From: Bdellovibrionales bacterium
Lineage (GTDB): Bacteria; Bdellovibrionota; Bdellovibrionia; Bdellovibrionales; JAUICD01
Length of the DNA: 64,000 nt
Direction of reading: 5' to 3'
Assembly: GCA_965262715.1 (NCBI GenBank)
Contig: OZ253553.1
Coordinates: 2,752,001 to 2,816,000, forward strand
Below, piece by piece: positions 6,859 to 56,538 of this stretch (within the stretch, counting starts at the first letter, position 1; the number at the start of each line of letters is the position of its first letter). Below the pieces are notes generated by a model. It was not told where the DNA came from. It did not search any database and saw nothing but the letters and a program-made list of their open reading frames with translations. Position numbers and translations under genes: made by a program.

Positions 6859-6876
6859 AACAGGAGGAACAAAGCA

Positions 6877-7284
6877 ATGAATAAATACGAAAAGTTTCAA
6901 AAAGCTTTAAAGCATTTAGAGCGAAGAAATACAGAATATAAGAACATAGATGAACAGTCTCAATGGATAAGGGAATCTATTATAGAATCTGTTATCCAAA
7001 GGTTTGAAGTTTGTTGTGATTGTTTGTAGAAGGCTTTGAAGGCTTATTTAGAAGAGAATTTAAAAGATTCTAAGATTCCAAATAGCCCTAAACCAATTTT
7101 TGAAATAGTTTGTGAAAAAAACATTTTAAGTGTGCCTAAAGAACAATGGCATAAATATATAGATATGAGAGATGCCACTAGCCATGACTACAATCATCAA
7201 AAAGCTCAAAGAGCAATAGATATAATAGATGGTTTTACTGATGATACCACTGGTCTTTATCAAACAATGACAGGTCAAACATAG
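6877..7284 (+). pseudogene. HEPN (HI0074-like) protein with in-frame TAG at 7027-7029
   Basis: AGGAGG RBS, ATG 6877, ESVIQRFEVCCDCL*KALKAYL..RDATSHDY in one frame. Confidence 0.85.
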
Positions 7285-7292
7285 GAGTTAAA

Positions 7293-7712
7293 ATGCTTAA
7301 TTTATCATCATTAGAGAGTGCTATCAATGAGCTTGAATATTTTTTAAATTCTTATGACTCTAAGGAACATCAAGGAGATCCAAAAATAGTACGTATAGCA
7401 GCTATTAAAGCTTTTGAGTTTACTTATGAGCTAACTTTTAAAATGATGGAGCGTTATTTAAGGGAGAGCGCAGCAAGTGTTGATGATTTTAAAAGCGCAA
7501 CTTTTAAATTAATTATTCGAAAGGCTTATGCAGCCTCTATCACAAGTAAGGCAATTGAAGAATGGGAGGAATTTAGAGAAAATAGGAACAAAACAAGCCA
7601 TACATATAAAGAGAAGATAGCAATAGAAGTTTTTGAAAAGATTCCTGCTTTTTTAGAGGAAGCTCGGTATATATTAAAACAGTTAAAAGAGAGGATAAAA
7701 CATCTTGAGTAA
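7293..7712 (+). CDS. HEPN (HI0074-like) RNase toxin with intact R-X4-H
   Basis: AAIKAFEFTYEL, RNKTSHTY. Confidence 0.88.
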   Translation: MLNLSSLESAINELEYFLNSYDSKEHQGDPKIVRIAAIKAFEFTYELTFKMMERYLRESAASVDDFKSATFKLIIRKAYAASITSKAIEEWEEFRENRNKTSHTYKEKIAIEVFEKIPAFLEEARYILKQLKERIKHLE

Positions 7713-9462
7713 GCCTGATATTCGCCCTGATCATCTTAAGATTGTGCAAGACATTTTGAATAAGAGCCTTTCAAGTGATATAAAGGTGTGGGTTTATGGT
7801 AGTCGTGCCAAGTGGACCACTCTTGATTCTTCTGATTTGGATTTAGCTTTAGAGAGCAAAGACAAAATTGATTATGAAGTGATGAATCGCTTAAACTGTG
7901 ATTTTGAAGAAAGCAATTTGCCTTATGAAGTGGACGTTGTAGATATAAATACAGTGCAGCTTTTTTTTAGAGATATTATCAATAAAGACAAAGTTTTATT
8001 AGATCGTTATACTTCGATGAAAGGAAAGAAGACTATTCCAAAAGGTTGGCAAGAAGTAAGATTAGGTGATGTTATTTTTGTAAATCCATTGGAGGTAATT
8101 CCAAAAGATAATACTAGAAAAAAAGTCTTAATGGATGATTTAACTCCTTTTAGAAAGAAAATTTCTAATTATACTAATGACATATATAAAGGAGGATCAA
8201 GATTCAGAAATGGAGATACTTTATTAGCTAGAATAACACCTTGCTTAGAAAATGGAAAAACAGCTTTTGTTGATGTTCTAGAAAAAGATGAAGTAGGATT
8301 CGGTTCGACAGAATTTATTGTTATGAGAAGTAAGCCACATTTAACTGATAAGCATTTTTTATTTTACCTTGCTATCTCTCCTTACTTCAGAAATCTAGCC
8401 ATTAAATCTATGACAGGTTCTTCAGGAAGGCAGAGGGTTCAGACTGACGAAATTATGAATATTAAAGTTTTTTTACCACCACTTCCAGAGCAGAAAGCAA
8501 TTGCAGAAATATTATCAAGTTTAGATGACAAGATAGAGCAAAATCAAAATATGAATAAGATATTGGAGGAGATGGCACAAGCTATTTTCAAGTCATGGTT
8601 TGTTGATTTTGATCCTATTTATGCAAAAAGGATGGCTTTAGAAGCAGGATTAGCAGGAGGTCAAGCTGAACGAGCAGCAATGGCAGTGATTGCTGGAGTG
8701 TGTAGTCCTAAGCAATTTGCAGAGAATTTCAGGCAGATGGATCGTAGCTTAGGTGAAAAGTTCTTTAAGATAAATGAAAGTGCGAAGTATGAATTAATTT
8801 ATAAGGCGTCATTATTTCCAAGTGAGTTTGTAGATAGCAAACTTGGTCTCATCCCAAAGAGCTGGAATATTTGCAAAATTGGAGAAAAAATTGATTTTAA
8901 TCCGACAACTCTTTTAAAAAAAGGAACAGCTGCAAATTATGTTGATATGAAGTCATTACCAACTTCTGGACATAGAATCAAACAAGTTGTAAGGAGAATA
9001 TTTAAATCAGGAACTAAATTTCAAAATGGTGATACTCTAATAGCTCGTATTACGCCATATTTAGAAAATGGAAAAACAGCTTATGTGGATCGTTTGGAAA
9101 ATGAAGAAGTAGCATGGGGATCAACAGAGTTTATTGTAATGAGGTCAAAAAAAGATGTATTTGGTATCTGGACATATTTGCTTAGTAGAAATGATGATTT
9201 TAGACGTTTCGCTATATCTAATATGTCTGGAACAAGTGGGAGACAAAGAGTTTCAGCAGATCTCTTATCTCAATATGAAATACCATTGGCAAGCATTAAG
9301 ATTTTAAGTAATTTCAATAGGGTAGTCACATCATTTTTTGAAAAAATGAAAAAGAATAGTGTTGAAAGTTCCTATCTTGAAGGTTGTCGAGACATTTTAT
9401 TGCCTAAGCTTTTATCAGGAGAGATTGATATCTCCAAAATCAAAACAAAGGAAAAATTATGA
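7705..9462 (+). CDS. hsdS: Minimal nucleotidyltransferase (MNT) fused to type I specificity subunit
   Basis: N-terminal YGSRA..SDLDLA..VDVVD, then IPKGW-TRD-LPPLPEQKAIA..WFVDFDP..IPKSW-TRD-RDILLPKLLSGEI. Confidence 0.93.
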   Translation: MSKPDIRPDHLKIVQDILNKSLSSDIKVWVYGSRAKWTTLDSSDLDLALESKDKIDYEVMNRLNCDFEESNLPYEVDVVDINTVQLFFRDIINKDKVLLDRYTSMKGKKTIPKGWQEVRLGDVIFVNPLEVIPKDNTRKKVLMDDLTPFRKKISNYTNDIYKGGSRFRNGDTLLARITPCLENGKTAFVDVLEKDEVGFGSTEFIVMRSKPHLTDKHFLFYLAISPYFRNLAIKSMTGSSGRQRVQTDEIMNIKVFLPPLPEQKAIAEILSSLDDKIEQNQNMNKILEEMAQAIFKSWFVDFDPIYAKRMALEAGLAGGQAERAAMAVIAGVCSPKQFAENFRQMDRSLGEKFFKINESAKYELIYKASLFPSEFVDSKLGLIPKSWNICKIGEKIDFNPTTLLKKGTAANYVDMKSLPTSGHRIKQVVRRIFKSGTKFQNGDTLIARITPYLENGKTAYVDRLENEEVAWGSTEFIVMRSKKDVFGIWTYLLSRNDDFRRFAISNMSGTSGRQRVSADLLSQYEIPLASIKILSNFNRVVTSFFEKMKKNSVESSYLEGCRDILLPKLLSGEIDISKIKTKEKL

Positions 9463-10603: not shown

Positions 10604-13600
10604 ATGAATATGTTTAAGAAACTTTTTAATTCATCATCGTCATCACCTCAAAAGCTTTGTACTCAAACCACTTTAACAGAAAAAAACAATATGCGATCTC
10701 AACTTATAAAAGCTGTTTCTGAAATACTTCCAACACATTACATTTCTGAAGAAACACTTCAATCATGGCTGGAAAAGTTAGGAGCTTCAAAAGCATTAAA
10801 GCTATTGAAGCAAAAGCTACCAGAAGATAAAAAAAAGAATTCCGGTGATCTGGGGGAAATCTTAGCCACAGAATATGTAAATCATGAGCTGGAATATGAA
10901 GTGCCTATTAAAAAACTAAGATGGAAAGACTCACGAGAACAATCACTCCGTGGAGATGATCTTATTGGCTTTATTGATAAAGAAAATGTTTTAAAAATTT
11001 TAAAAGGTGAAGTTAAAAGCAGTGTTTATATAACACTATCCATTATAAAAAAGCTAGAGAAACAATTAAATTCTAATGAGGGAAGACCAAATCGACACTC
11101 AATCCTCTTTATAACTGAAAGGCTTCGTGAACTAGGAAACACACCTCTTGCAAATAAAATAGAGAGAATTATTGCTGAAGAGAGTATAAAGCGAGAAAAT
11201 ATTGAACATCTAGGATTTACTTTTTCGGGAAATTGTCCAAAAGAAATTCATTTAAAAAGTCTTAATAAATATAATGGTACAATTAAACGAATTTTTGTCG
11301 GTTTACATATTAGAGATCATCAAGATTTTATCAAGACAGTTTACCAAGAAGCTGTAACAGAAAAACCAATAAGACAGATAGTAAATAGAGAAATGAAAGA
11401 TGAAGAAAAACATCTGTCTTTAGAAGAACTGACTAAACCTGAATTTCGTGGACGTTTACTTGCAAGGGGCTTGGCCCGTGGAATGATATGGAAAGATGGT
11501 CGATCGCCAGAAGATGGGCCTAAATTTTCTAAAGAATTAACTGAAGATTTATTAGATTACGGATATGCTCTGTTTTCCATTGGACTAAAAAAACTAGAAT
11601 CCGAAACTGACAAGACTCTCTTAAAGAAAACTTTTCTTATAGCTGGTGAATCTATTGAGTCTGTTGTAAGAAAAGGTAACCCATTAGACCCTTATCGAGG
11701 TTATCATACTGTTGCATCTGCTATAGCATTTCATTTAGCAGGTTATTCTGCTCGTTCATACTGTATGATACCAGAAGATTTTAAAACATCATTAAATATC
11801 TCACATATTGAACTTGGTCTGATATATTTGTTACGTAGAGATTTATTCCAACTAAGAACATGGATTGAGGAAGTTTTTAATAAAGATACTTCATTTAAAG
11901 GAGACGATGAAGTTTCAAATGATGATCTCATACAACAATTTGCAATAGAAAATAACTTTTTGTCTGCTATGGCTTATTTAGAATTTGCTTTACAAACGGG
12001 TGATAACTCATTGATAGAAAATGCCTTTTCAAAATTAGATAATGGTATTTCTGTATCAAAAGATTTTTCTCACGTTCCAATGTGGTGGCAGAATTTTATA
12101 ACTAAATTCTTAGTAAAAGACTTGTGGAAACACACACTGCATGAAGTTATACCAAAAGGGCAAGAAACTAAATGGAATCAACTAAGACAGCTTTTTATTT
12201 CACTACTATATATGCGTGAAAAATCAGAGGTTGACCTTTGGCCCTCTCAACTTGAAGCAGGCAAACGATGTGTTGATGAAAAAGATGACCTTGTAGCGAC
12301 TTTACCTACGAGTGCGGGGAAAACTCGTATTGCTGAAATGTGTATTTTAAGAACTCTTTCACTTGAAAAAAGAGTCATTTATATTACACCGTTGAGAGCT
12401 TTATCAGCACAGACAGAACAAACTCTATCTGATACCTTTACTCCATTAGGCTTTACAGTTTCATCTCTTTATGGTGCTATTGGATCAACAAAAACTGATA
12501 TAGATACACTTAAAAGTCAAAATATCGTTGTATCCACTCCAGAAAAGTTAAGCTTTGCTCTTAAAAACGATCCTCAGATTTTAAATGATGTTGGGTTAGT
12601 CATCTTTGATGAGGCTCATACCCTCGGCTTGAATGAAAGAGAAATCAATTATGAAATTCTTATTCAGAAAATATTAAAGCGAAAAGATGCTGACAATCGT
12701 CGATTGGCTTGCCTTTCTGCGATGTTTCCTCAAGGACAAGAATTAAATAATTTTTTAAGTTGGATTCGACAAGACCAACCAGGTGAAGCTATTCAATCTG
12801 ATTGGAAACCTACACGTCAAAGATTTGGAGTTATTGAATGGAAAGACACTTATGCTCGCTTAGATTTTACAGTGGATTCGGAAAAACCATTTATTCCCAA
12901 ATTTATAGAAGGAAAACCTCCAAAATCAAGAAAAGGAAACTTTTTTCCTCAAAATAAAAATAAACTAGTTTTAGTTTCTGCATGGAAACAAGTCAGTGAA
13001 GGTCACAGAGTATTAATATATTGCCCACAACGTAGATCAGTAGAAGCCCTCGCAAAACTAGCTTTAGATTTGTGTAATAAAGACCATTTACAATCATTGA
13101 TTGAAAGTACTGAAACATCATCAAAGAGTTTAATTGATGATACCATTCAATCTGGAAAAGAATGGTTAGGTGAAGATCATATTGCTATTACATGTCTTAA
13201 ATTAGGTATAGCTGTGCATCATGCCGGATTGCCAAGGCCTTTTTTACATTCAATAGAAAGACTTATCAGGAAAAATATTTGTAAGATTATTATATCTTCA
13301 CCAACTTTAGCTCAAGGATTAAATTTATCTGCAAGTTGTCTTATTGTACACTCAATATACCGTAAAGGAAAGCCCGTGCCAAAAAAAGAATTTTTAAATG
13401 TTATTGGTAGGGTAGGAAGGGCTTTTATAGATATTGATGGGATTATATTATTTCCAGTTTATGAATCTGACAAAAGAAAAAGAGATAAACAAATTCTAGA
13501 ATGGAGACAACTTACAAGCTCTCAAATAGAAAATATTCAAAGTGGACTTTTTCTTTTGGTTGAGAAACTCATTACTCTTATTTCAAAGTACAGAGGATAC

Positions 13601-14860
13601 AGTAAAGACAATCTGCTGGAATACCTTTTTTCAAATCAAGAAATATGGAAAATTCCCACTCGTAATATATCAGAAGACGACGTAGAAAATTGGCCAAAAT
13701 ATCTATCCTATCTTGACTCAGCTATTCTTTCTTTAGCAGATGACTTAGATGCCAATGTTGACAAGATATCTCAAATTTTAGATAACATTTTAAAAGGTTC
13801 ACTTTGGCAACGTCAAATGAATTTAATATCTGAAGGAGATCAAAGACTTCATCAAGAGATACTCAGACAAAGAGCTTCCTGGATTTGGGCCCATACAAAC
13901 TCTAAAGAACGTAGGGGATATTTTGCTGCTGGTGTTGGCTTAGAGTGTGGAAAGTATATTGATAATAATGAAGAAATGATCAGAAATCTTATAAATGCTG
14001 AAGATTATATACAATCAAGAGAAAAAGAAAAGTTTCTAGAAGCCATAATAAATTTTGCTGACTTGGCTTTCCAACAACCTTCTTTCAAACCTTATAAATA
14101 TTGTGATTGTTGGCAAGATGTATTGAAAGAATGGCTCTTAGGTAAACCTGTATCAGAGATTATCCAAATAGGTGGAAAAGAGACAGTTCCTTTTATTCAA
14201 GATGCATTGATCTATAAGTTAGTCTGGGCAATAGAGGCTGTATTCAATCAATCCAAACATACAAAAAAATTCAAAGATATACGACCTAAAAAAATCACAG
14301 ATATAAAAACTGAAAATTCAATTTTTAATGATACACTAGATAGTTTATTAAATGATATGGACTTTACAGATATTGAAATCAAAGACATTTCTTTAGCTAT
14401 AGAATGTGGCTCTCTCAATTTGTCTGAATGCACTCTTATCAAGGCAGGTTTAAATTCAAGAGTTGTAGCAAGAGAAGCTGTCAGAAAAGAACAAGGAAGA
14501 TTTCAAGATCATGATAGTATGAGGGCATGGTTAAAAGAACTACCTCGCGATGAAAACTGGCCAACTCCAGAAACAGCAAAGGAATGGAAAAAATTCATCG
14601 AGAGAACTTCTGAAAAAGAAAAGAAACTTGAAATCAAAACATGGGAAGCTTCATGCAAATGGTCAGATCAGCTTGATAGAATTCCTCAAGTTGACTGCAA
14701 ATTAAGAGTCAAAGTATCAAGAAAAAACCTCTCTATTTACTCTCCTGATTTTAAGCTCCTAGGAAATATCTCTAACAATAGAGATGATATTTCGACATCT
14801 GCAAATATTTGGGCTACTGTTATTTCTGAAGACAAGCTTGAGATTACACATATTGGATAA
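10604..14860 (+). CDS. Hachiman-like HamA (DUF1837) - HamB (Ski2-like DEAH helicase) fusion
   Basis: N-terminal SGDLGEIL..KLRWKD..RGDD..KGEVKS; helicase motifs PTSAGKT, STPEK, DEAH, LSA, HHAGL, TLAQGLN, GRVGR. Confidence 0.85.
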   Translation: MNMFKKLFNSSSSSPQKLCTQTTLTEKNNMRSQLIKAVSEILPTHYISEETLQSWLEKLGASKALKLLKQKLPEDKKKNSGDLGEILATEYVNHELEYEVPIKKLRWKDSREQSLRGDDLIGFIDKENVLKILKGEVKSSVYITLSIIKKLEKQLNSNEGRPNRHSILFITERLRELGNTPLANKIERIIAEESIKRENIEHLGFTFSGNCPKEIHLKSLNKYNGTIKRIFVGLHIRDHQDFIKTVYQEAVTEKPIRQIVNREMKDEEKHLSLEELTKPEFRGRLLARGLARGMIWKDGRSPEDGPKFSKELTEDLLDYGYALFSIGLKKLESETDKTLLKKTFLIAGESIESVVRKGNPLDPYRGYHTVASAIAFHLAGYSARSYCMIPEDFKTSLNISHIELGLIYLLRRDLFQLRTWIEEVFNKDTSFKGDDEVSNDDLIQQFAIENNFLSAMAYLEFALQTGDNSLIENAFSKLDNGISVSKDFSHVPMWWQNFITKFLVKDLWKHTLHEVIPKGQETKWNQLRQLFISLLYMREKSEVDLWPSQLEAGKRCVDEKDDLVATLPTSAGKTRIAEMCILRTLSLEKRVIYITPLRALSAQTEQTLSDTFTPLGFTVSSLYGAIGSTKTDIDTLKSQNIVVSTPEKLSFALKNDPQILNDVGLVIFDEAHTLGLNEREINYEILIQKILKRKDADNRRLACLSAMFPQGQELNNFLSWIRQDQPGEAIQSDWKPTRQRFGVIEWKDTYARLDFTVDSEKPFIPKFIEGKPPKSRKGNFFPQNKNKLVLVSAWKQVSEGHRVLIYCPQRRSVEALAKLALDLCNKDHLQSLIESTETSSKSLIDDTIQSGKEWLGEDHIAITCLKLGIAVHHAGLPRPFLHSIERLIRKNICKIIISSPTLAQGLNLSASCLIVHSIYRKGKPVPKKEFLNVIGRVGRAFIDIDGIILFPVYESDKRKRDKQILEWRQLTSSQIENIQSGLFLLVEKLITLISKYRGYSKDNLLEYLFSNQEIWKIPTRNISEDDVENWPKYLSYLDSAILSLADDLDANVDKISQILDNILKGSLWQRQMNLISEGDQRLHQEILRQRASWIWAHTNSKERRGYFAAGVGLECGKYIDNNEEMIRNLINAEDYIQSREKEKFLEAIINFADLAFQQPSFKPYKYCDCWQDVLKEWLLGKPVSEIIQIGGKETVPFIQDALIYKLVWAIEAVFNQSKHTKKFKDIRPKKITDIKTENSIFNDTLDSLLNDMDFTDIEIKDISLAIECGSLNLSECTLIKAGLNSRVVAREAVRKEQGRFQDHDSMRAWLKELPRDENWPTPETAKEWKKFIERTSEKEKKLEIKTWEASCKWSDQLDRIPQVDCKLRVKVSRKNLSIYSPDFKLLGNISNNRDDISTSANIWATVISEDKLEITHIG

Positions 14861-18117: not shown

Positions 18118-18366
18118 TTATTTATGTTTCTTAAGCTGTTCTAGCTCTTCTCTACTTAATTTTGTAGAATCAAGAATAACTTGGATATCAATTTTATTTT
18201 TCAGCATATTTAAAGCAATTTCTCTGCGTTCTTTCTCTATTCCTTCTTTAAGAACAAATTCTTCTCTACTTACCCTATCCCTTTCTTTTTTATCGATTGC
18301 TTCTAAATATTCTCTTAAAACCTCATTTTGAGAGAGGTTCCAAAGATGTTTCACTGCTTTTGCCAT
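18118..18366 (-). CDS. Putative intragenic small protein (Rpn-S) of B2, 82 aa
   Basis: In-frame AAGGAGG-CGAT-ATG before MAKAVKHLWNLSQNE. Confidence 0.72.
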   Translation of the reverse strand: MAKAVKHLWNLSQNEVLREYLEAIDKKERDRVSREEFVLKEGIEKERREIALNMLKNKIDIQVILDSTKLSREELEQLKKHK

Positions 18367-19071
18367 ATCGCCTCCTTGATCTTTAAAAGTCTTGTACTCC
18401 ATAAGACCTACATTGTAGGAATTCTTCAAAAGATAACACCACGACTCCTTTGTATTATACAACTGTTTTATGCTTTTATCAAATTTCCGCAATTCTACAA
18501 TAACAAAACATAAACCATGCGACATTAGGACTTCCGGTGACTTTGTTCTGCGGATATTGCAAATATGATAATAGTCTTTAATATGCTCAAAAGCTTTTAA
18601 GTTTTCATTTATAAAAGCTAATGAGTACACAGGAAATAACTTGTCATAATTACTGCCTTTTTCAATCTGCCGTGAATAAAGCCTACAGGAATAAGCTAAA
18701 GTTCTATCTGTAAAATAAGGTTCTGATATGGTTTGCATCTCCACATTTACAAATTCCGTCTGATAACTGCCTGTTGGAGTTCTTCTTTCGAAACTTGCTC
18801 TTAAATCAAGGATAAAGTTTTTACCAGATTTTTCTCCTTCTTTTATAGAAAGAATATCTGGAGGGATTTCTGGATCAAGTATTTCTATATCTGTAATAAT
18901 GGAACCAGTGGGAAGTGGTAAAAAATTTGTTAAAAGAGATATTAAAAGCTCTTTGTTGAACTTAAAATAAGCTTTAAAAGCTGCGTCATTAGTGAGTTTT
19001 AGAAAATGAGTTTCTTTTAAAAATTCACTAATATGTGAAAACTGCTTTTTATCATGATGGCTGGATTTCAT
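18118..19071 (-). CDS. Rpn family PD-(D/E)XK nuclease (PDDEXK_2 type), copy B2 (divergent paralog)
   Basis: NDAAFK, ILDLR, VNVEMQ, DRTLAY motifs. Confidence 0.9.
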   Translation of the reverse strand: MKSSHHDKKQFSHISEFLKETHFLKLTNDAAFKAYFKFNKELLISLLTNFLPLPTGSIITDIEILDPEIPPDILSIKEGEKSGKNFILDLRASFERRTPTGSYQTEFVNVEMQTISEPYFTDRTLAYSCRLYSRQIEKGSNYDKLFPVYSLAFINENLKAFEHIKDYYHICNIRRTKSPEVLMSHGLCFVIVELRKFDKSIKQLYNTKESWCYLLKNSYNVGLMEYKTFKDQGGDMAKAVKHLWNLSQNEVLREYLEAIDKKERDRVSREEFVLKEGIEKERREIALNMLKNKIDIQVILDSTKLSREELEQLKKHK

Positions 19072-22703: not shown

Positions 22704-23756
22704 TTATTGGCACTTGCTTTGAATTTGCAAGACTTCTTTTTCTGAAAGCCCTGTTGCTTTACTTATGGCTTGTATATCCATATCAGTTGTCTTTAGAAGA
22801 TTTATAGCAACTTTCTGCAATCCTTTCTGCAAACCTTTCTGCAAACCTTTCTGTAAACCTTCCTGCAATCCTTCCTGCAACCCTTCCTGTAGACCTTCTT
22901 GCCTTATGCGATCTCTCATCATTTGTAATGGTGGCATTGTTCTCTTCTCCTTTGATACATTCTTTTCTTCTATCTCTTGTAAAGTATTCCAAGTAAAGTT
23001 TGGATCACAAAGTCTCACACAATCAACTGCCCTGTCCATTAAAAAAATACGGTCTTCTTTACTGGAAAGCTTATTGGACAACTTAAACAAATCTGAAATG
23101 ACCTGCTCATCTAAGTTCCATACACTCTTTAGTATAAACAAAATCGTCCCAGATAGCAAGTCCTTTGAGCTTAATTCTGCCATTCCTAAATCATTTAAGT
23201 TTAATAATCTATACTTATAATTTAAAACATTCTCGCCGAAAGCCTTTTTAAGCTCTAAAGACTTAAAATTCAAGTAATCATGGAAACTCAAAGGCAAATT
23301 CCATCCTCTTTTACCAGAGTAAACCAACACAGGGATCACTATGGATGGAGCTTTACGTTTTCCACTCTTAACATCTTTACTGTCTTTCTCATAAATACTT
23401 GCTTGATACTTAAGAAGCTGTAAAAAAATATCCGAGTCATTATAGGATTTATGCTCAAAAAGAAAAATAATTTCTACAATCTCATCTGAATCTTTCATCT
23501 TCACTGAAAAAATCACATCAGCTCTCTGCTCCCTAAACACCTGATCTACAAAAACAGTCACTTTTGACTGTAGAGTCTTCCAATCAAAAAGATCAAATTC
23601 TTCAGGAGTTAAAACCAAACGAAACAAGTCTAAAACATACCGCTCCTTGCTATAAATTTCATAAAACAAATGATTGAAAATATGAAAAACTTCACGTTTT
23701 AACTCCTGTTTGTTTTTTGGAAGCTTTACCTTTTTATACTTAGATCTGACCATCAC
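22704..23756 (-). CDS. Rpn YhgA-like protein, copy A2 (7 GLQx repeats; internal start at 22937)
   Basis: Near-identical to A1; AAGGAG-N9-ATG internal site. Confidence 0.9.
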   Translation of the reverse strand: MMVRSKYKKVKLPKNKQELKREVFHIFNHLFYEIYSKERYVLDLFRLVLTPEEFDLFDWKTLQSKVTVFVDQVFREQRADVIFSVKMKDSDEIVEIIFLFEHKSYNDSDIFLQLLKYQASIYEKDSKDVKSGKRKAPSIVIPVLVYSGKRGWNLPLSFHDYLNFKSLELKKAFGENVLNYKYRLLNLNDLGMAELSSKDLLSGTILFILKSVWNLDEQVISDLFKLSNKLSSKEDRIFLMDRAVDCVRLCDPNFTWNTLQEIEEKNVSKEKRTMPPLQMMRDRIRQEGLQEGLQEGLQEGLQKGLQKGLQKGLQKVAINLLKTTDMDIQAISKATGLSEKEVLQIQSKCQ

Positions 23757-24026
23757 AAAACCTCTTAACTAGCTATGAACCTTATTAAACATAAAAACCT
23801 TAATCAAATGAAAACTCCTGCTTGCATCATAATTTAATTTCAAAAATATAAAAAAATACTCATCAAAACCTCTCTAGATAAATCCTTCTGCAACAAGACC
23901 TCTGAAAAGTACAGTTCTTCGAGTCCATATTTCATTAGAAATAAAATGGTAAGGTATTAGTTTTTTAAGATTTTGTTTTGCTTTTTCTAAAAAACCAGTA
24001 TTCTCTCTAAAACTCTCATATAAAAT

Positions 24027-24566
24027 CTATCGTTTAGATTTTTCTTGAAGCTTACAAATTTCTTCCTTTGAAAAACCAGTAACTTTAGATATTTTTTCTG
24101 CACTCATACCAGTGTTTAGAAGCTTTAATATAACTTCTGCTATCCCTTCCTCTATTCCTTCCTTAAGCCCTTGTACAATCCCCTCTAGTTGTCCTTCTCT
24201 GCGGGCTAGGTTTTCTGCACTAATCCCATTTCTTTCTTTTATATTGATTGCTTCTAAGTATTCTCTTAAAACTTCATCTTGAGATAATTTCCAAAGCTTC
24301 ATCCTTGTTTTTGCTGTATTTTTTCCTTTCATAGCTTCTCTAAGGTCTTCTAATTTTTTAAGTCTTTGAGATTGTTGGATTGAAAGTTTTGTTATCTGAG
24401 CAATAAGCTGCAATTCCATATTTTGCTCTAACATCCGTAAAGCTATTTCTGCCCTCTCTTTCTCTATCCCTTTCTCCATACCTTCCTCTATAATTTCCTC
24501 TATAACTTTCTCTATAACTCTCTCCATAACCTTCTCCATGCCTTTCTCTATACCTTCATCAATCAA
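24027..24566 (-). CDS. Rpn C-terminal-domain repeat protein (two units; 5' end frameshifted/uncertain)
   Basis: EGMEKGIEK..IALRML..IAQITKLS followed by WKLSQDEVLREYLEAI..ISKVTGFSKEEI. Confidence 0.65.
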   Translation of the reverse strand: MIDEGIEKGMEKVMERVIEKVIEEIIEEGMEKGIEKERAEIALRMLEQNMELQLIAQITKLSIQQSQRLKKLEDLREAMKGKNTAKTRMKLWKLSQDEVLREYLEAINIKERNGISAENLARREGQLEGIVQGLKEGIEEGIAEVILKLLNTGMSAEKISKVTGFSKEEICKLQEKSKR

Positions 24567-24569
24567 TCA

Positions 24570-25146
24570 TAAGTGCTTTTTATTTTTTGACCTTCCTTAC
24601 TTTTAATAACTTCACTTTCAATCTTTACAAATTCCTTCTTTAAGAGCATTTAAATTTTTTGAGTGCGATATCAAGATCATGAAATTATTTTTTAAGTTTT
24701 TCAAGTTGCTGAATGGAAAGTTTTGTTATCTGGGCAATAAGTTGTAATTCCATATTTTGCTCTAACATTCGCAAAGCCACTTCTACCCTCTCTTTCTCTA
24801 TCCCTTTCTCCATACCTTCATCAATCAATTGATCATAAGTGCTCTTCATTATTTGATTCTCCTTACTTTTAATAATCTCATCTTCTATTTTTATAAAACC
24901 CTCTCTCGAGTAATCTGTAGCCTGAAGTATATATCTTCCTAAAATATCAGCACTTTCTTGATAATTTGGATCCTTACCATTTTGTCGTAAACAGATAAGT
25001 TTTTTTCTTCATCTTCTTTTTGAGAAAAGTCCCAAAAGTTCTCTGTGCTAATTCTATCTCTTTCTCTTTTATCGAATGCATCTATATATTCTTGTAAAAC
25101 CTCATCTTGAGATAAGTTCAAGAGATGTTTCACTGCTTTTGCTATA
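24570..25146 (-). pseudogene. Decayed mosaic of Rpn C-terminal units
   Basis: Start codon ATG to ATA after AAGGAAG RBS; AKAVKHLLNLSQDE..ERDRISTENFWDFSQKE chimera; 24687-24870 duplicates parts of 24360-24610. Confidence 0.7.
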
Positions 25147-25156
25147 CTTCTTCCTT

Positions 25157-26050
25157 TTATATTTCCTTAAGCTTTTCTAACTCTTCTCTACTCAGCTTTG
25201 TAGAATCAAGAATAACTTGAATATCAACTCCACTTTTTAGCATATTTAAAGCAATTTCTCTGCATTCTTTCTCAATCCCTTTCTCTATCTCCTTCTCTAT
25301 CCCTTCTTGTTGTCCTTCTCTTCGAGCTAAGTTTTCTGCACTAATTCTATCTCTCTCTTGTTTATCGATTGCTTCTAAATATTCTATTAAAACTTCATCT
25401 TGAGATAAGTTCCAAAACTTCTTTCCTGTTCTTGCTATATTTCTTCCTTTCATAGCTTCTCTAAGGTCTTCTAATCTTTTAAGTCCTTCTAATGCGTCCT
25501 TAGTAAATTTTGTAACATCAAGAATAATCTGAGTATCGACTCCATTTTTTAGCATATTTAAAGCAACATTCTCACGTTCTTTATGTAGTCCTTTTATAAC
25601 TCCTTCTTCAAATCCTTCTGTGTGAATGAGTTTTTCTCTATTGACTCTATTCTTCTTTTTCTTTTCAAGGATATGTAGGTATTCACTTTCAATCTCTTTT
25701 TGAGAAATATCCCGGTAGTTCTCTACTTCCCTTGTTATGTCAATATCTTGACTCTTAAAATTCTTATACAAAATCTGCTGTTTAGCTTTTTCCTTAAATT
25801 CATAAATTTTTTCTTTTGAAAAACCAGTGACTTCAGATATCCTTTCTATTTCTACACCAGAATCTAGAAACTTTAATATGGCTTCCTCTACTCCTTCCTG
25901 TTGTCCTTTCTTAAATCCATCCTCGACACCTACTTTATAAACATGTTCTTCGCTACTAACTCTATCTCTTTCCATCTTGTCATAGGCATACAAGTATTCC
26001 TCTTCACCTTCTTTTTGGGAAAAATTCCAAAGTTTCTCTGTTTCTGCCAT
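25157..26050 (-). CDS. Three-unit Rpn C-terminal-domain protein without nuclease domain
   Basis: Own GAGGAG-ACGAT-ATG; three WNFSQ/RDISQ/WNLSQ units. Confidence 0.8.
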   Translation of the reverse strand: MAETEKLWNFSQKEGEEEYLYAYDKMERDRVSSEEHVYKVGVEDGFKKGQQEGVEEAILKFLDSGVEIERISEVTGFSKEKIYEFKEKAKQQILYKNFKSQDIDITREVENYRDISQKEIESEYLHILEKKKKNRVNREKLIHTEGFEEGVIKGLHKERENVALNMLKNGVDTQIILDVTKFTKDALEGLKRLEDLREAMKGRNIARTGKKFWNLSQDEVLIEYLEAIDKQERDRISAENLARREGQQEGIEKEIEKGIEKECREIALNMLKSGVDIQVILDSTKLSREELEKLKEI

Positions 26051-26089
26051 ATCGTCTCCTCAACCCTTAAAGTCCTCATATAAAGTTTA

Positions 26090-26320
26090 TTACTTAGACT
26101 TATCTTGAAATTTACAAATTTCTTCCTTTGAAAAACCAGTAACTTTAGACACTTCTTCTCCACTCATTACAACGCCTTAAAAGTTTCAATATAACTTCCT
26201 TTATTCTTTCTTGTTGTCTTTCTTTTTTACCTTTCTTAATTCCTTTTTCTATCCATTCTTATCATCTTTCCAGATGTTCTTCTCTGTGAGCTAGATTGTC
26301 TGCACTAACCCTCTCTCTTT
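26090..26320 (-). pseudogene. Decayed single Rpn C-terminal unit
   Basis: VSADNLAHRE..EVILKLL..EEVSKVTGFSKEEICKFQDKSK* with frameshifts. Confidence 0.7.
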
Positions 26321-26343
26321 TAGAGATCCTATCTCTTTTGGAT

Positions 26344-26946
26344 TTATAGATATTTTTTAAGATGTTCTAATTTTTTAAGTCTTTCTAACTCGTCCTTAGT
26401 AAATTTTGTAACATCAAGAATAACCGGGGTATCAACTCCAATCTTTACCATATTTAAAGTAATGTTCTCACGTTCTTTTTGTAGTCCTTTTATAAATCCT
26501 TCTTCAAATCCTTCTTTGCGAATGAGTTTCTCTCTATTGGCCCTATTCTTCTTTTTCCTTTCGAGAACATACAAGTGTTCACCTTCATCCTCTTCTTGAG
26601 AAACATCCCAATAGTTCTCTACTTCCTTTGTTATATCAATGTTTTGATTCTTAAAATTCTTATACAAAATCTGTTGTTTAGTTTTTTCATGAAACTTATG
26701 AATTTTTTCTTTTGTAAAACCAGTAATTTCAGATACTTTTTCTATCTCCTCATCAGCATCTAAAAATTTTAATATAACTCCCTCCATTCCTTCTTGTCGT
26801 CCTTGCTCAAATCCATCCTCAACACCTTCTTTATAAACAAATTCTTCTCTAGTTATTCTATCTCTTTCCATCTTGTCGTAGACAGATAAGTTTTTTTCTT
26901 CACCTTCTTTTTGAGAAAAGTCCCAAAAGTTTTCTGCCTTTGCCAT
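26344..26946 (-). CDS. Two-unit Rpn C-terminal-domain protein without nuclease domain
   Basis: Own GAGGAG-ACGAT-ATG; paralogous to the first two units of 25157..26050. Confidence 0.8.
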   Translation of the reverse strand: MAKAENFWDFSQKEGEEKNLSVYDKMERDRITREEFVYKEGVEDGFEQGRQEGMEGVILKFLDADEEIEKVSEITGFTKEKIHKFHEKTKQQILYKNFKNQNIDITKEVENYWDVSQEEDEGEHLYVLERKKKNRANREKLIRKEGFEEGFIKGLQKERENITLNMVKIGVDTPVILDVTKFTKDELERLKKLEHLKKYL

Positions 26947-26985
26947 ATCGTCTCCTCAATCCTTAAGGTTCTTATATAAATTCTA

Positions 26986-27273
26986 TTATTTAGATCTTTC
27001 TTGAAACTTACAAATTTCTTCCCTTGAAAAACCGGTAACTTTAGACACTTCCTCTGCACTCATACCAGTATTTAGAAACTTTAATATAACTTCCGCTATC
27101 CCTTCCTGCCGTCCTTTTTCTATCCCTTTTTCTATTCCCTCCTGTTGTCCTTCTCTGCGGGCTAGGTTTTCTGCGCTAATTCTATCTCTTTCTCTTTTAT
27201 CAAACGCATCTATATATTCTTGTAAAGCCTCATCTTGGGATAAGTTCAAGAGATGTTTTACTGCTTTTGCCAT
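26986..27273 (-). CDS. Intact Rpn-S ORF of disrupted B3, 95 aa
   Basis: AAGGAG-AAGAT-ATG; open to the stop at 26986. Confidence 0.7.
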   Translation of the reverse strand: MAKAVKHLLNLSQDEALQEYIDAFDKRERDRISAENLARREGQQEGIEKGIEKGRQEGIAEVILKFLNTGMSAEEVSKVTGFSREEICKFQERSK

Positions 27274-27412
27274 ATCTTCTCCTTTATTTTCCAAACTCTT
27301 ATATTCAGTATCATTCATTTTATATGAATTCTTTAATAAATAACACCATGACTCTCTTATATCATACAATTGCTTTACATTTTTATCAAATTTCCCTAAC
27401 TCTGCTTTTTTC

Positions 27413-27526
27413 ACTAAAAATGAACCAGCCGTCGAGGTGAGCCTCTGGCTGTTTTTGGGCAATGACCCCGACGGCTAATGCCCTCGGCAAATAGGTCATT
27501 GCCTCAAAAACCTGTTCATTTTTAGT
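27413..27526. repeat. GC-rich multi-stem palindromic element (MITE/REP-like or structured RNA)
   Basis: 13-bp closing IR ACTAAAAATGAAC/GTTCATTTTTAGT; inner stems CAGCC..GGCTG and TTTTTGGGCAATGACC/GGTCATTGCCTCAAAAA. Confidence 0.75.
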
Positions 27527-27944
27527 AAGAAGATACTCTTCATTTTTTAATAAGATGCTAAGGGAATATTAAAGCCTACATGCATATACCAATGCTCTAT
27601 CTGTAAAATAAGGTTTTGATACTGTTTGCATCTCTACATTTACAATCTCTGTTTTCTGGGTACCTGATTGTGTGTTCCTTTTTAAATGCATTCTCAAGTC
27701 GAGAACAAATCTTCTACCAGATTCTTCACCTTTTATAACAGAAGGAGTATCAGGATGAAGATCAGGATCTAAAACGTCTACTTTTATAACTTCTGAATGT
27801 TTTGGAAGTGGCAAAAAATGTGTGAGTAGTGATTTTAAAGCTTCTTCATTGCCTTTAAAATAGGTTTTAAAAGCTGCGTCATTTGTTAATTTTAAAAAAT
27901 GAGACTTTTTTAAAAATTCTTCAATATCTAATAACTGATGTTTA

Positions 27945-29351
27945 GAGGTTGTCCCATAGATCGGTGAAATTTTCTTATAGAAATTAGAAGAAAGTAGAGC
28001 TCCCGGCTATCCTAAGTGGTCTAGCCGTTGTTTACTGTTTTTATTTTATCAGGAAATAGATAACAGAAAGGAGCTATTATGAAGAGTAGTAAGAATGGTT
28101 ATTCAATTCAAGTTTTATCATCTGAGTCAAATGAGATTCGAGAGATCCTAGAGCATCGCATGAGATCAATGGTTATTAATATGATCCATGATTTCTTTGA
28201 GGATGAGTTATTATCACTGTGTGGTAAGCGTCATGTTCGTGGTCGTGATACAAGATATTACAGAGCGGGTAGTGATTCTGGGAGTGTTCTTGCACAAGGT
28301 CAAAGGCTTCAGGTGAGGAAGCCTAGGGTGAAGGAGAAGGGAGGTTCTGATATTAAGCTGCGGTCTTATTCAGTGCTTCAAAAGTATGACATACTTTGTG
28401 ATAAAGTTTTGAGTCATGCTATGAGAGGGGTATCTTGTCGTAATTACAATGAACTTCTTGATGATATTGTAGGAGGGACGGGTCTTTCTAAGAGTACAGT
28501 GAGCAGAGTCTTTAATAAGTCATCTAGGAAGTTTCTTGAATCTTTAAATGGTCGTGATCTGAGTAAGGATAAGTTTTCATCAATTATGATTGATGGTGTT
28601 GTTTTTGGATCAAGGACAGTGGTTGTAGCTCTTGGCATCACAGTTGAAGGTAAGAAGTTAGTTCTGGGTCTTAGAGAGGGTCATACAGAGAACTGGGAAG
28701 TTTGCAAGGACTTATTAGAGAGTTTAATAGCAAGAGGTCTTTGTTCAGATAAGCCTTACCTTTTTGTAATTGATGGTAGCAGATCTTTAAGGACAGCTAT
28801 TAATAGAGTTTTTGGTAAGAGAGCAGTAGTTCAACGCTGTATTCACCACAAGGAGAGGAACGTTTTAAGTTATTTACCTCAGGAACGTCATTTAGAGTTT
28901 AAGCGTCGCTGGAAGATGGTGCATGGTTTTAATGATTATGATTCTGCTCAGAGAGAATACAATAAGTTACTGAGTTGGTTAAGCAGGATTAATTATGCAG
29001 CATTGGCTTCACTTAAGGAAGCAAAGGAGGAGACACTGACAGTTATCAAGTTGAAGGTATCTCCACTGCTAAGGAGAACCTTATCTTCTACAAATCCTAT
29101 TGAGTCTGCCTTTTCTATTGTAAGTGATAAAGTCAGCAGGGTTAAGAACTGGAGAAGTTCTCCAGATCAGGTTATGAGATGGGCTGCTGCTTCTTTAGTT
29201 GAAGCTGAAAAAAAGTTTAGAGCTATTAAAGGGTATAAAGATTTAAATACAATGGAAGAAAATTTAAACCTATTGACTAACAATAGAAACAGGCGTAGCA
29301 AAACATCAAGCTCTGCTTAACTTCAATTTCACCGAAACGTGGGACATCCTC
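27945..29351 (+). mobile_element. IS256-family insertion sequence
   Basis: 27-bp imperfect IRs GAGGTTGTCCCATAGATCGGTGAAATT / AATTTCACCGAAACGTGGGACATCCTC; 8-bp target duplication GATGTTTA (27937-27944, 29352-29359). Confidence 0.95.
28079..29320 (+). CDS. IS256-family transposase
   Basis: IMIDG, ALGIT.EG.K..LG, VIDG, QRCIHHK.RN, STNPIES motifs. Confidence 0.95.
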   Translation: MKSSKNGYSIQVLSSESNEIREILEHRMRSMVINMIHDFFEDELLSLCGKRHVRGRDTRYYRAGSDSGSVLAQGQRLQVRKPRVKEKGGSDIKLRSYSVLQKYDILCDKVLSHAMRGVSCRNYNELLDDIVGGTGLSKSTVSRVFNKSSRKFLESLNGRDLSKDKFSSIMIDGVVFGSRTVVVALGITVEGKKLVLGLREGHTENWEVCKDLLESLIARGLCSDKPYLFVIDGSRSLRTAINRVFGKRAVVQRCIHHKERNVLSYLPQERHLEFKRRWKMVHGFNDYDSAQREYNKLLSWLSRINYAALASLKEAKEETLTVIKLKVSPLLRRTLSSTNPIESAFSIVSDKVSRVKNWRSSPDQVMRWAAASLVEAEKKFRAIKGYKDLNTMEENLNLLTNNRNRRSKTSSSA

Positions 29352-29414
29352 GATGTTTATTACTTGAACCCATAATTTACGCCCTCCTAAAATGAAAAAT
29401 CTAATAGGAATACA

Positions 29415-29765: not shown

Positions 29766-29900
29766 ATGACAAAAGAACCATCATTAGCAAATATGGAGAA
29801 ACTGACTGGAGAGTTAAGAGATAGCTTTATTGAATCTAAAAAGTTAGAAAAGCAAATTAAAGAAAACTTAGCAGGTATTGGTTTTAAGATAAGCTTATGA
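29766..29900 (+). pseudogene. hsdM: 44-aa internally deleted hsdM (first ~9 codons joined in frame to the last ~35)
   Basis: MTKEPSLAN-MEKLTGELRDSFIESKKLEKQIKENLAGIGFKISL*; its stop overlaps the next ATG as in the intact operon. Confidence 0.85.
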
Positions 29901-32137
29901 ATATAACTTTTTTAGAGCAATCCATTCAAAATTTAGAAAAAGCCTTAGACAGATACCATAAACATAAAGAGGATAAAAGCACGTTAAAGGATATTTTTAA
30001 AGATTCTTGTATTTACAGATTTAAAAACACTTATGAAATTACTTTTAAAATGATGAAAAGGTATTTAAAGGAAGCTTCCAGCAATCCTTTTGAAATTGAA
30101 AAATTAACATTCAATCAAATAATCGAAGAAGCTTTTACAGCTTCTATTATTAAGTTGGAGGTTAAAGATTGGAAAAAGTTTAGAGAGCACTGCATAAGGA
30201 TGAGTGAATTTTATAAAGAAGACGAGGGTGATGAAGTTTTAAAAGAAATTCCACTTTTTTTAGAAGATGTTAAATACTTCATTAGCCGTCTTAATGAAAG
30301 CTTATCACCGGAGAAAGAAATAACGAATAAGCATGATAAGCCTGATATTCACCCCGGTCATCTTAAAATTGTTCAAGACATTTTGAATAAGACCCTTTCA
30401 AGTGATGTAAAGGTATGGGTTTATGGCAATCGTGCTAAGTGGGCCACTCTTGATTCTTCTGATCTGGATTTAGCTTTAGAGGGTACAGGTAAAATTGATA
30501 ATAACACTATAAGTCAACTGGAACATGATTTTGAAGAGAGTGACCTACCTTATGAAGTGGATATTGTGGATATAGCAGTAGTACAGCCTTTTTTCAAGGA
30601 TGTTATCAATAAAGATAAAGTTTTATTAGATCGTTATGCTTCAATGAAAAAAAAGAAGACTATTCCAAAAGGTTGGCGAAAAGTGAGATTAGGGGATTTA
30701 ATTGATATTAAACATGGTTATGCATTTGATGGCAAACATATAACAAATGACGTTAACGAAAATATTTTAGTAACTCCAGACAACTTTCATATTGGAGGAG
30801 GATTTAAATCTTCAAAATTAAAATATTGCAATGGTGATATTCCAGCAGATTACATCTTAAGTGAAGGTGATAAAATTGTAACAATGACAGATTTAAGTAA
30901 AGAAGGAGATACACTTGGTTATTCTGCAAAAATTCCTAAAAGCAAAAATGGTGAAATATATTTACATAATCAAAGAATAGGATTACTTCAATACCAATCA
31001 AAAGATGTTTATGAAGACTTTATTTATTGGATAATGAGGAGTAATAAGTATCAACAATTTATAGTTAGTGCTGCTACTGGTACTTCTGTAAGACATACAT
31101 CCCCAACAGCTATTAAAAAATACAAATTTTATTTGCCACCTCTTCCTGAGCAGAAAGCAATTACAGAAATATTATCAAGTTTAGATCACAAGATAGAGCA
31201 AAATCAAAATATAAATAAGGCATTGGATGAAATGACACAAGCTATTTTCAAGTCATGGTTTGTTGATTTTGACCCTGTTCATGCAAAAAAGATGGTTTTA
31301 GAGGCAGGGTTATCAAAAAAGAAGGCAGAGCGAGCAGCAATGGCAGTGATTACTGGAATGTGCAGTCCCAAGCTGTTTATAGAAAATATTAAGCAGATGG
31401 ATCACAGTTTAAGTGAAAAGTTATCTAAGATGAGTCAAAACAAGAGAGATAAGTTATCTTACACAGCATCATTATTTCCAAATGAGTTTGTAGACAGCAA
31501 CCTTGGCCTCATCCCTAAAGATTGGTCTTGTAAATCTATAGGCAACATTGCAACTGTTATAGAAGGAGGAACTCCTGCAACCAAAAATAAAAAATATTAT
31601 TGTAACAAAGGGGAGGGAATTCCATGGTTGACACCAAAGGATCTCTCTAGATATTCATGGAAATATATCTCCAGTGGAGCAATAGACATAACTGAGTCTG
31701 GGTTAATAAATTCGGGCGCAAAAATAGTACTTAAAGGGACTGTACTGATTTCCTCGAGAGATCCAATTGGTTATATAGCAATTGCTGAAAATAAATTGTC
31801 TATAAATCAAAATTTTAAGTGTTTAGTTCCTCATATTGATACTCAATTTCTTTATTACTGGGCAAAAAGTAATATTGATAACATAGAAGCTGCAGCTACA
31901 ACAGGTCTTACGTTCAAAAAGATAACCAGAAGGAATATAGAAAATCTTAAACTTGTAGTGCCAAATAGAGATATCATGAACCAATTTAATCGATTCACAG
32001 CTTCTTCATCAAAGAGGCAAAAAATTATGTGTTATGAAAGTCATACTTTAAAAGAAATCAGAGACATTTTACTTCCTAAGTTTTTATCAGGAGAAATCAC
32101 CGCCTCTAAGATCAAAATAGGTGAAGCTAGATGTTAA
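29897..32137 (+). CDS. hsdS: HEPN-MNT-HsdS triple fusion with TRDs different from 7705..9462
   Basis: N-terminus homologous to 6466..6858, then KPDIHP..YGNRA..SDLDLA, then the HsdS conserved blocks with new TRDs. Confidence 0.92.
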   Translation: MNITFLEQSIQNLEKALDRYHKHKEDKSTLKDIFKDSCIYRFKNTYEITFKMMKRYLKEASSNPFEIEKLTFNQIIEEAFTASIIKLEVKDWKKFREHCIRMSEFYKEDEGDEVLKEIPLFLEDVKYFISRLNESLSPEKEITNKHDKPDIHPGHLKIVQDILNKTLSSDVKVWVYGNRAKWATLDSSDLDLALEGTGKIDNNTISQLEHDFEESDLPYEVDIVDIAVVQPFFKDVINKDKVLLDRYASMKKKKTIPKGWRKVRLGDLIDIKHGYAFDGKHITNDVNENILVTPDNFHIGGGFKSSKLKYCNGDIPADYILSEGDKIVTMTDLSKEGDTLGYSAKIPKSKNGEIYLHNQRIGLLQYQSKDVYEDFIYWIMRSNKYQQFIVSAATGTSVRHTSPTAIKKYKFYLPPLPEQKAITEILSSLDHKIEQNQNINKALDEMTQAIFKSWFVDFDPVHAKKMVLEAGLSKKKAERAAMAVITGMCSPKLFIENIKQMDHSLSEKLSKMSQNKRDKLSYTASLFPNEFVDSNLGLIPKDWSCKSIGNIATVIEGGTPATKNKKYYCNKGEGIPWLTPKDLSRYSWKYISSGAIDITESGLINSGAKIVLKGTVLISSRDPIGYIAIAENKLSINQNFKCLVPHIDTQFLYYWAKSNIDNIEAAATTGLTFKKITRRNIENLKLVVPNRDIMNQFNRFTASSSKRQKIMCYESHTLKEIRDILLPKFLSGEITASKIKIGEARC

Positions 32138-33844: not shown

Positions 33845-34000
33845 TTATAAAAAATGTGTGAGTAGTGATTTTAAAGCCTCTTCATTGCCTTTAAAATAGG
33901 TTTTAAAAGCTGCGTCATTTGTTAATTTTAAAAAATGAGTTTCTTTTAAAAATTCATTAATATCTGAGAACTGCTTTTTATCATTATGGTTAGATTTCAT
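33845..34000 (-). pseudogene. Rpn-B 5' stub (51 aa), chimera of B2-like and B1-like N-termini
   Basis: MKSNHNDKKQFSDINEFLKETHF (B2-like) ..KTYFKGNEEALKSLLTHFL* (B1-like). Confidence 0.85.
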
Positions 34001-40416: not shown

Positions 40417-40566
40417 TTATAAAAAATGTGTGAGTAGTGATTTTAAAGCCTCTTCATTGCCTTTAAAGTAAGTTTTAAAAGCTGCGTCATTTGTTAATTT
40501 TAAAAAATGAGACTTTTTTAAAAATTCTTCAATATCTAATAAATGATGTTTATTACTTAAACCCAT
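40417..40566 (-). pseudogene. Rpn-B 5' stub (49 aa)
   Basis: B1-like N-terminus ending LTHFL*; same junction as 33845. Confidence 0.85.
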
Positions 40567-44277: not shown

Positions 44278-44387
44278 AAAACCCTTTAACTAGCTATGAA
44301 CCTTATTATAAAAAATGTGTGAGTAGTGATTTTAAAGCCTCTTCATTGCCTTTAAAGTAAGTTTTAAAAGCTGCATCATTTGTTAAT

Positions 44388-54134: not shown

Positions 54135-54158
54135 GTAAAGTCTATTTAGGAAATTTTT

Positions 54159-56529: not shown

Positions 56530-56538
56530 GGAGGATTT

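Follow-up and report, generated by a model that had tools for sequence, protein, structure and literature searches.

Why does a bacterium keep a row of antitoxin-like protein tails behind a nuclease gene that is itself dead? The question is raised by 12 RpnS-like units lying head to tail on the minus strand at 24027-27273 of a 64,000-nucleotide stretch of Bdellovibrionales DNA (contig OZ253553.1; G000:2752001-2816000, here called the window), part of the 2.94-Mb single-contig genome G000 (33.6% GC). The available parts of the report on Rpn nucleases (PMC10400941) describe an RpnS that dimerises via a long helix and blocks the full-length nuclease, RpnL, in a 2:2 complex. Stand-alone RpnSs proteins are expressed, and RpnS action is cognate- and repeat-number-specific; one extra 4-aa repeat abolishes protection. 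We tentatively read the array as overgrown RpnSs: by analogy, a protein in which two tail types (F and N) are fused could inhibit B-type (PDDEXK_2) nucleases in trans, with both specificities already joined in one chain, a proposal that we hold with somewhat less than even confidence.

Anatomy of the array

A hidden Markov model (HMM) of the unit, run over the six frames of the genome, resolves the array into the tail of rpn gene B3 (U1) and 11 orphans, eight of them intact domains and three decayed or half units. The initial annotation, made from the window sequence, saw about 11 tandem units; the array is real and the count becomes 12. HMM limits are U1 26989-27273, U2 26674-26946, U3 26362-26634, U4 ~26093-26340, U5 25778-26050, U6 25469-25738, U7 25154-25438, U8 25035-25145, U9 24942-25046, U10 24685-24849, U11 24351-24566 and U12 24030-24317. 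The features that these units form, with their open reading frames (ORFs), are:

26986-27273, minus strand: U1, native RpnS of B3, 95 aa, with Shine-Dalgarno (SD) site, ATG and F-type tail
26344-26946, minus strand: 200-aa di-unit ORF without nuclease (U2 F-type, U3 N-type), led by a GAGGAG SD, with ATA where the inner start was
26090-26340, minus strand: U4, a decayed copy of U1 (frameshifts, stops)
25157-26050, minus strand: 297-aa ORF of three units (U5 F, U6 N, U7 N), with a GAGGAG SD and ATA in place of both inner starts
24942-25148, minus strand: U8 and U9, each the N-terminal half of a unit and lacking a start codon
24682-24984, minus strand: captured 3' end of a Transposase_31 clade-C rpn gene
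24027-24566, minus strand: 179-aa ORF joining U11 (C-type tail) to U12 (F-type unit)
1614-1900, minus strand: single frameshifted orphan unit behind rpn B1
61421-61735, minus strand: two broken part-units with the same F-tail/SD linker

The intact orphan domains sit in ORFs of 200, 297, 54 and 179 aa. The predicted single-, double- and triple-unit ORFs, the 200- and 297-aa ones among them, thus exist; as had also been claimed, none of the four has a nuclease Pfam match, and decayed copies (U4 and the halves U8 and U9) accompany them. Their TIGR01784 match is confined to the C-terminal part of that model, and PF27070 (HTH_Rpn_C) is a precomputed annotation on the 200-aa family. By sequence, the units are RpnS-like. 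The last two features listed, taken at first for smaller arrays, are nothing of the kind. Genome-wide, 52 matches to the tail helix-turn-helix (HTH) fall into 31 clusters (23 singles, six pairs and two long clusters), and the array is not a chance product because more than two HTHs per cluster occur solely here (10 HTHs) and in a sister copy (7).

Translation signals separate leading from inner units. GAGGAG-ACGAT-ATG is confirmed at 26946 and 26050, and the leading units U1, U2, U5 and U10 carry SD and ATG. The notion that units have their own SD sites holds for these but not for the inner fused units, which have lost both: U3, U6, U7 and U12 have ATA or ACA where the start codon would be, and their SD is worn. 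One 14-codon linker follows U1 and U4 in a closed form (stops, SD, ATG) and U2 and U5 in an open form. With inner starts lost and the linker open, the 200- and 297-aa products, if made, would therefore be single chains of two and three RpnS domains. U10 is a 54-aa ORF at 24685-24849, with AGGAG and ATG, within the captured clade-C segment; the 179-aa ORF has lost its original ATG, and its start is uncertain (TTG 24566 or ATG 24479).

Two alternating tail types had been described; there are three, and they follow no alternation: F (U1, U2, U4, U5, U12), N (U3, U6, U7) and C (U10, U11). The order F,F,N,F,F,N,N,half,half,C,C,F amounts to a trimer repeat plus a mosaic end: U1-U3 and U4-U6 form a repeat of ~896 bp, 81% identical, and the U7-U8 junction is 79% like the junction between the B1 tail and its orphan at 1788-2181. 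The 12-bp tandem repeats that encode 4 aa of helix 1 vary in number in RpnL, U7 and U11 and are invariant in the U2/U3/U5/U6 families, and the third unit of the tri-unit ORF varies in the sister copy and other alleles. The array is two-layered, with a stable core of two-tail genes and a labile distal zone.

A model of the 200-aa protein has two long-helix plus HTH units (predicted local distance difference test, pLDDT, 63; predicted template-modelling score 0.52). Foldseek gave the RpnS structure 7th0 the highest probability (0.57), a weak match (E 6.3, root-mean-square deviation 0.8 over 33), and comparison of this pLDDT-63 model with the PDB 7TH0 fold gave a VIA Z of 4.5; nothing reached E<=0.001 or Z>=8 in the fold searches. 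Complex prediction for B2 with the di-unit returned an interface score (ipSAE) of 0.00 twice, and is counted neither for nor against an interaction.

Dead head gene, tail exchange and sister array

The array does lie downstream of rpn B3, as annotated, but B3 is a pseudogene broken by two elements:

27945-29351, plus strand: IS256-family element, transposase 28079-29320 (PF00872), a few codons into rpn B3
27570-27944, minus strand: what remains of the 5' part of rpn B3 (PDDEXK_2; codons ~6-129), 99% identical to B1, with a stop at the hairpin element
27403-27570, minus strand: ~165-bp long-hairpin repeat replacing about codons 130-190 of B3 (z -7.8)
27361-27389, minus strand: TTGATA-17-TATGAT promoter-like site, ~88 nt ahead of the internal start, spared by the deletion

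The IS256 element is flanked by the 8-bp target duplication TAAACATC, leaves the original ATG of B3 beyond it at 29373 and has no counterpart in the sister copy. The nuclease in cis is dead both here and in the allele on a 110-kb contig (P0018, P0025), and any role of the array must therefore be played in trans. The promoter-like site recurs ~88 nt before the internal SD and ATG in all four B-type genes, as a consensus match inside coding sequence that is no proof of a promoter; a promoter scan of the region found 10 sites against 13.3 in shuffles, which is chance level, and no terminator. The long-hairpin element has 477 nhmmer matches in G000, some in tandem, and just one inside the window. 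Hairpin repeats of ~155-165 bp often abut 5'-truncated rpn genes (L022, L023, L024, L031, L036) and lie within 700 bp upstream of six tail loci in G000, always in one orientation (background 4%), B3 and its sister not being independent among these six. The hairpin likewise precedes many orphan tails in a second genome, G001. The element may generate orphan RpnS through removal of the nuclease part. G000 has a single Y1_Tnp gene, at 1839505.

The mosaic end records exchange between nuclease classes. Type C stems from Transposase_31-class genes: positions 24682-24984 are 80% identical to the 3' ends of the clade-C genes at G000 2602043, 1367575 and 2821159, which lie 44 kb to 1.4 Mb away, and the left junction of the captured segment falls at ~8 nt of microhomology. 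Across G000, tail type is independent of nuclease clade, with N tails on the clade-C gene at 1002877 and on B1 and B2, and F tails on the B-type gene at 1098685 and on Transposase_31 genes. The gene at G000:C1:1002877-1003830 joins a Transposase_31 clade-C nuclease to the N-type tail of a PDDEXK_2 gene (HTH 82% identical to U7), so tails have been exchanged between nuclease families. Among nucleases with 88-97% identity to B2, the tail is N in B2, P0027 and P0173 and, on a by-eye reading, F in P0015, P0016 and P0174.

U3, U6 and U7 (N) and U10 and U11 (C) fall with other loci rather than with U1. Best whole-unit identities to the tails of the 17 resident full-length Rpn proteins and two outside alleles are 41-83%, mostly in gapped alignments. 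No unit is thus a near-copy of a resident tail, and with the cognate and repeat-number specificity described in the available parts of PMC10400941 this speaks against reading the immunity array first suggested as a one-to-one bank of cognate antitoxins. The core units U2, U3, U5 and U6 are 44-56% identical to their best RpnL tail among the 19 that could be extracted in full from 34 B-type proteins; at no more than 56% to any of these, they are no current tail donors. U1, S7, U7 and U12 are 67-86% identical to existing RpnL tails, and distal units could be donors. The orphan behind B1 has a tail HTH 82% identical to the tail of the B2 allele P0015, from another assembly.

A sister array of seven units lies at G000 2744620-2747432. 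It equals the window from 27945 to 25444 save for one substitution and a 14-bp indel, and is identical again from 24152 to 23320; a short mosaic stands in place of the intervening 1.29 kb, so that the third tri-unit domain is F there instead of N. A simple long duplication was considered for the sister and rejected, as the flanks differ. Public-run contigs hold both architectures: the short join 24151-25296 in X5, the long form, about 4% diverged and with an additional 12-bp repeat, in X6, and both in X1, possibly the source sample. Depths in X1 are 17-18 (long-specific), 11 (short-specific) and 29-30 (shared), a sum which hints that the two array copies may be alleles rather than paralogues, contig depth being no copy number and the flanks of the two copies being different. 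Whether paralogue or haplotype, distal cassette exchange outpaces point mutation.

Constraint, distribution and competing explanations

If fused tails act in trans, candidate targets are at hand in the window:

1912-2868, minus strand: intact PDDEXK_2 nuclease gene rpn B1 with an N-type tail; SD and ATG inside the gene at 2169; candidate target
18118-19071, minus strand: intact PDDEXK_2 nuclease gene rpn B2 with an N-type tail; SD and ATG inside the gene at 18366; candidate target

Both exceed the cut-offs for PF12784 and TIGR01784 and hold the catalytic set (in B2, D29, D89, E111, Q113 and R123, invariant across 19 homologues), as the broken cis gene B3 does not. A GGAG and an in-frame internal ATG mark a putative start of the C-terminal domain in all four B-type genes.

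In the scheme that we favour, recombination has copied 3' ends of rpn genes behind B3 repeatedly. One F-N pair fused into a nuclease-less gene, lost its inner start, was duplicated and has been kept as its own small protein family; the sequences show both steps, and a distal part that still trades cassettes with other rpn loci, including those of another nuclease class. The internal promoter-like site that survives probably drives the intact products, which would be translated from the SD sites. By analogy, they would most likely bind full-length Rpn tails in trans and damp the nucleases; in effect an RpnS dimer in one chain with two specificities, they would cover both tail types of the switching B-type nucleases. 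Consistent with this scheme are the RpnS-type domain in every unit, the gene-within-gene signature and catalytic residues of B-type RpnL, the F/N tail swaps on nucleases close to B2, the di- and tri-unit homologues in other assemblies, the 17 full-length rpn ORFs (at least 310 aa) in the genome, the window being a defence island, and the decay of U4, which arose in the same duplication, while the di-units persisted stop-free.

Selection estimates, a check that the initial annotation proposed, were obtained with maximum-likelihood codon models. The two in-window di-units give omega 0.54-0.57 (p 0.014-0.024) and U2-U5 0.41-0.45 (p 0.01-0.02); nuclease domains stand at 0.16-0.27. A Nei-Gojobori omega of 0.35 for the in-window di-units was rejected as too low, since 72 of the 94 differences are transitions. 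Among five di-unit proteins, substitutions are conservative (mean BLOSUM 0.43 versus -0.13 +/- 0.13; 0 of 400 neutral runs), 90 of 191 columns are invariant where 80 +/- 4 are expected (P 0.01, star-tree null), and the chance that both in-window copies stay stop-free under neutrality is P 0.03-0.04. The constraint on the di-units, as far as these comparisons reach, appears weak: real but relaxed, with ascertainment towards intact ORFs.

The proposed scan of relatives recovered di- and tri-unit homologues in other assemblies. Six of 304 candidates matched, and among them four proteins from other ENA assemblies are di-unit homologues (68-94% identical, 191-212 aa, no indel in 191 shared columns); tri-unit homologues are P0008 and P0009. 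The 110-kb contig appears to hold orthologues of the 200-, 297-, 54- and 179-aa ORFs together with broken B1-like heads. At E<=1e-30 the full di-unit occurs in 2 of 1.84 billion database representatives, and a JGI metagenome scan with the di-unit alignment gave 369 pattern matches, of which 0 were confirmed. Tails are present in four of five genomes of the family; fetched stretches of G001 hold at most a gene plus three near-identical tails, and three named Bdellovibrionales metagenome-assembled genomes (MAGs) have pairs of a gene and one orphan. Of 150 listed representatives, 147 remain after removal of three from the di-unit family. Single-tail, Met-start proteins of at most 125 aa without nuclease match account for 84 of the 147, and 13 have 2-4 tails (PDDEXK_2 and Transposase_31 absent in all 13), P0063 and P0115 among them resembling fragments. 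Within the material searched, single orphans are common, poly-tail proteins recurrent and a 12-unit mixed array rare.

Several results weigh against a trans inhibitor. Published RpnS inhibition is cognate-specific, against which the 44-56% identity of core units to the best RpnL tail would sit poorly. Three of the 12 units are broken, and one unit has lost its start. U3-U6 has omega 0.71-0.76 (p 0.4-0.5), indistinguishable from neutral, and the tails of intact genes (clade C, B) are under far stronger constraint than the di-units (0.10-0.22). A transition-aware neutral simulation (P 0.17-0.22), a strain-level count (P 0.14-0.19) and an HTH-core test (P 0.105) did not reach significance. The full di-unit occurs in just one of 151 genomes of the order, G000 itself, and since the homologue searches yield intact ORFs only, evidence drawn from ORF intactness is biased.

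These points bear on the most serious competitor, which we regard as unlikely: in a repeat-rich genome whose rpn loci duplicate their 3' ends, repeated unequal exchange behind a dead gene would have left recombination debris, in which ORFs persist through slow decay or weak selection against junk. The dead head gene, the broken U4, U8 and U9, the many broken rpn loci of G000, the 477 hairpin elements, the near-identical tail tandems of G001 and the relaxed omega with its non-significant tests all suit debris, and about one stop-to-sense change suffices to fuse F to the next unit. Debris accounts poorly for the conservative substitutions and excess invariant columns, for di-units without indels despite the variable repeat number of RpnL tails, for strong SDs on leading units with inner starts silenced, and for the stop-free in-window copies.

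A tail reservoir, with silent cassettes recombined onto RpnL to alter oligomerisation, sensing or antitoxin specificity like orphan Rhs/CDI (contact-dependent inhibition) tips, is rather improbable for the array as a whole. Tails have indeed been swapped between near-identical nucleases, tail type is uncoupled from nuclease clade, distal cassettes differ between copies, the orphan at 1617-1808 resembles the tail of P0015, and U1, S7, U7 and U12 are close to RpnL tails; the reservoir proposed at first may fit the distal zone, where it can be compatible with inhibition in trans. It fits the core poorly, as U2, U3, U5 and U6 resemble no RpnL tail and a silent donor needs neither its own SD sites nor fusion; in the swaps observed, array units are candidate donors. 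Nor is it probable that the products are tandem resolvase-like HTH regulators acting on rpn promoters or repeats to control the island: the unit profile does match helix E and the HTH of gamma-delta resolvase (E 0.0015), the HTH of the model resembles those of sigma region 4 and Tn3 resolvase (Z 6.2) and HTH-adjacent columns are conserved, but the proteins are acidic (isoelectric point 5.2-5.4, net charge -7 and -12), Z values of about 6 are common among helical bundles, and DNA binding by RpnS goes unreported in the literature sections covered.

Setting and comparison with known systems

The window contains a defence island with type I restriction-modification (RM), Zorya I, a Hachiman A-B fusion, PDC-S20, PDC-S39 and a TIR effector, along which a module rpnB (PDDEXK_2) - tails - rpnA (Transposase_31) is repeated in intact, stubbed and split forms. 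The module that holds the array is closed by:

22704-23756, minus strand: intact Transposase_31-class rpn gene, 350 aa

Stubs of 28-51 codons from the rpnB 5' end stand directly ahead of rpnA copies at window 33845-34000, 40420-40566 and 44309-44392, the rpnB-tails part having been deleted. A smaller second dispersed repeat, with further copies in the genome, lies between array and rpnA (window 23782-23896). HamA and HamB of Hachiman are fused in a single 1418-aa ORF (window 10604-14860), and the type I Zorya operon is complete (window 51981-59571), with ZorD ending, by eye, in an HNH-like motif and not the usual Mrr-like nuclease. A type I RM specificity subunit is fused to nucleotidyltransferase and substrate-binding (HEPN/MNT-like) domains at window 29897-32137, with a split version at window 6466-9462. 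A gene just upstream of the island (G000:C1:2735344-2738911) has ~153-bp Cys-rich tandem repeats. There are no Rfam matches in the window, and PADLOC models cover neither B2 nor the array ORFs. A B2-based search of named genomes placed five of six loci in Bdellovibrionales MAGs, which makes a host from that group probable.

Rpn biology asks why tails vary so fast, what stand-alone RpnS does and how genomes hold tens of paralogues, and this locus offers a natural test set of three intact B-type nucleases, F/N tail-swapped alleles and mono-, di- and tri-domain candidate inhibitors. Should fused tails neutralise several nucleases, specificity would be looser or tunable by avidity, and small 'hypothetical' HTH_Rpn_C proteins would form a regulatory layer of phage defence; should they not, the locus would show arrays arising as by-products. 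A broader claim is doubtful at present: that poly-RpnS proteins lacking a nuclease make up a general class, so far undescribed, of multivalent antitoxins with a broad range, and that such loci are acquisitive arrays gathering tails of unlinked Rpn classes. If this is true, a cell could keep dozens of toxic nucleases that swap tails, or withstand incoming ones, although single RpnS obeys a cognate-only rule, and the 13 poly-tail representatives would be independent origins.

Analogy with orphan toxin/immunity modules behind cdiA and rhs (PMC3150448), drawn at first, extends to a row of alternative 3' modules that follow a main gene and are exchanged by recombination. The analogy is otherwise loose, as no orphan toxin domain or secreted-carrier gene occurs in or beside the array. 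The cassettes, unlike those of cdiA/rhs, have no toxin domain, separate immunity gene or delivery apparatus, and a single sequence is here both the swapped part and the candidate antitoxin. We know of no delivery of Rpn between cells.

Closer kin are the Rpn RpnL/RpnS pairs. The accessible text of Zhong 2023 (PMC10400941) likewise has a C-terminal domain made of a long helix with 4-aa repeats and an HTH, full-length genes with an internal SD and ATG, small separate copies downstream of rpn and a defence-island context; RpnA, in the accessible text of PMC5350276, shares the PD-(D/E)xQ catalytic set. Known stand-alone genes are ypaA/rpnESs and rpnCSs (PMC10400941 as available; commentary PMC10400984). 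The array ORFs, as nuclease-less Rpn C-terminal genes downstream of rpn, resemble these RpnSs, but with two or three fused domains they are not single domains that cluster with the tail of their own upstream gene. They differ further in the 11 orphans, the in-frame fusions with silenced inner starts, the dead cis nuclease, tails from an unlinked nuclease class, a PDDEXK_2 head in place of Transposase_31 and an RpnS ~40 aa longer. Nuclease-less poly-HTH_Rpn_C proteins in databases also have 2-4 Rpn tails per chain and no nuclease family match; they come from unrelated lineages, often with near-identical repeats, and were compared as protein sequences. The array had been thought undescribed: a literature coverage that mostly excludes subscription journals yielded no paper on long arrays of RpnS alone or on fused poly-RpnS proteins, whereas single-copy orphan RpnS behind rpn is already published. 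In PMC10400941, as available, each orphan is a single copy grouping with the gene upstream of it, and the arrays consist of whole rpn genes. Against that background of single RpnSs and whole-gene arrays, the long mixed array and the fused poly-RpnS proteins, judged from their sequences, appear new.

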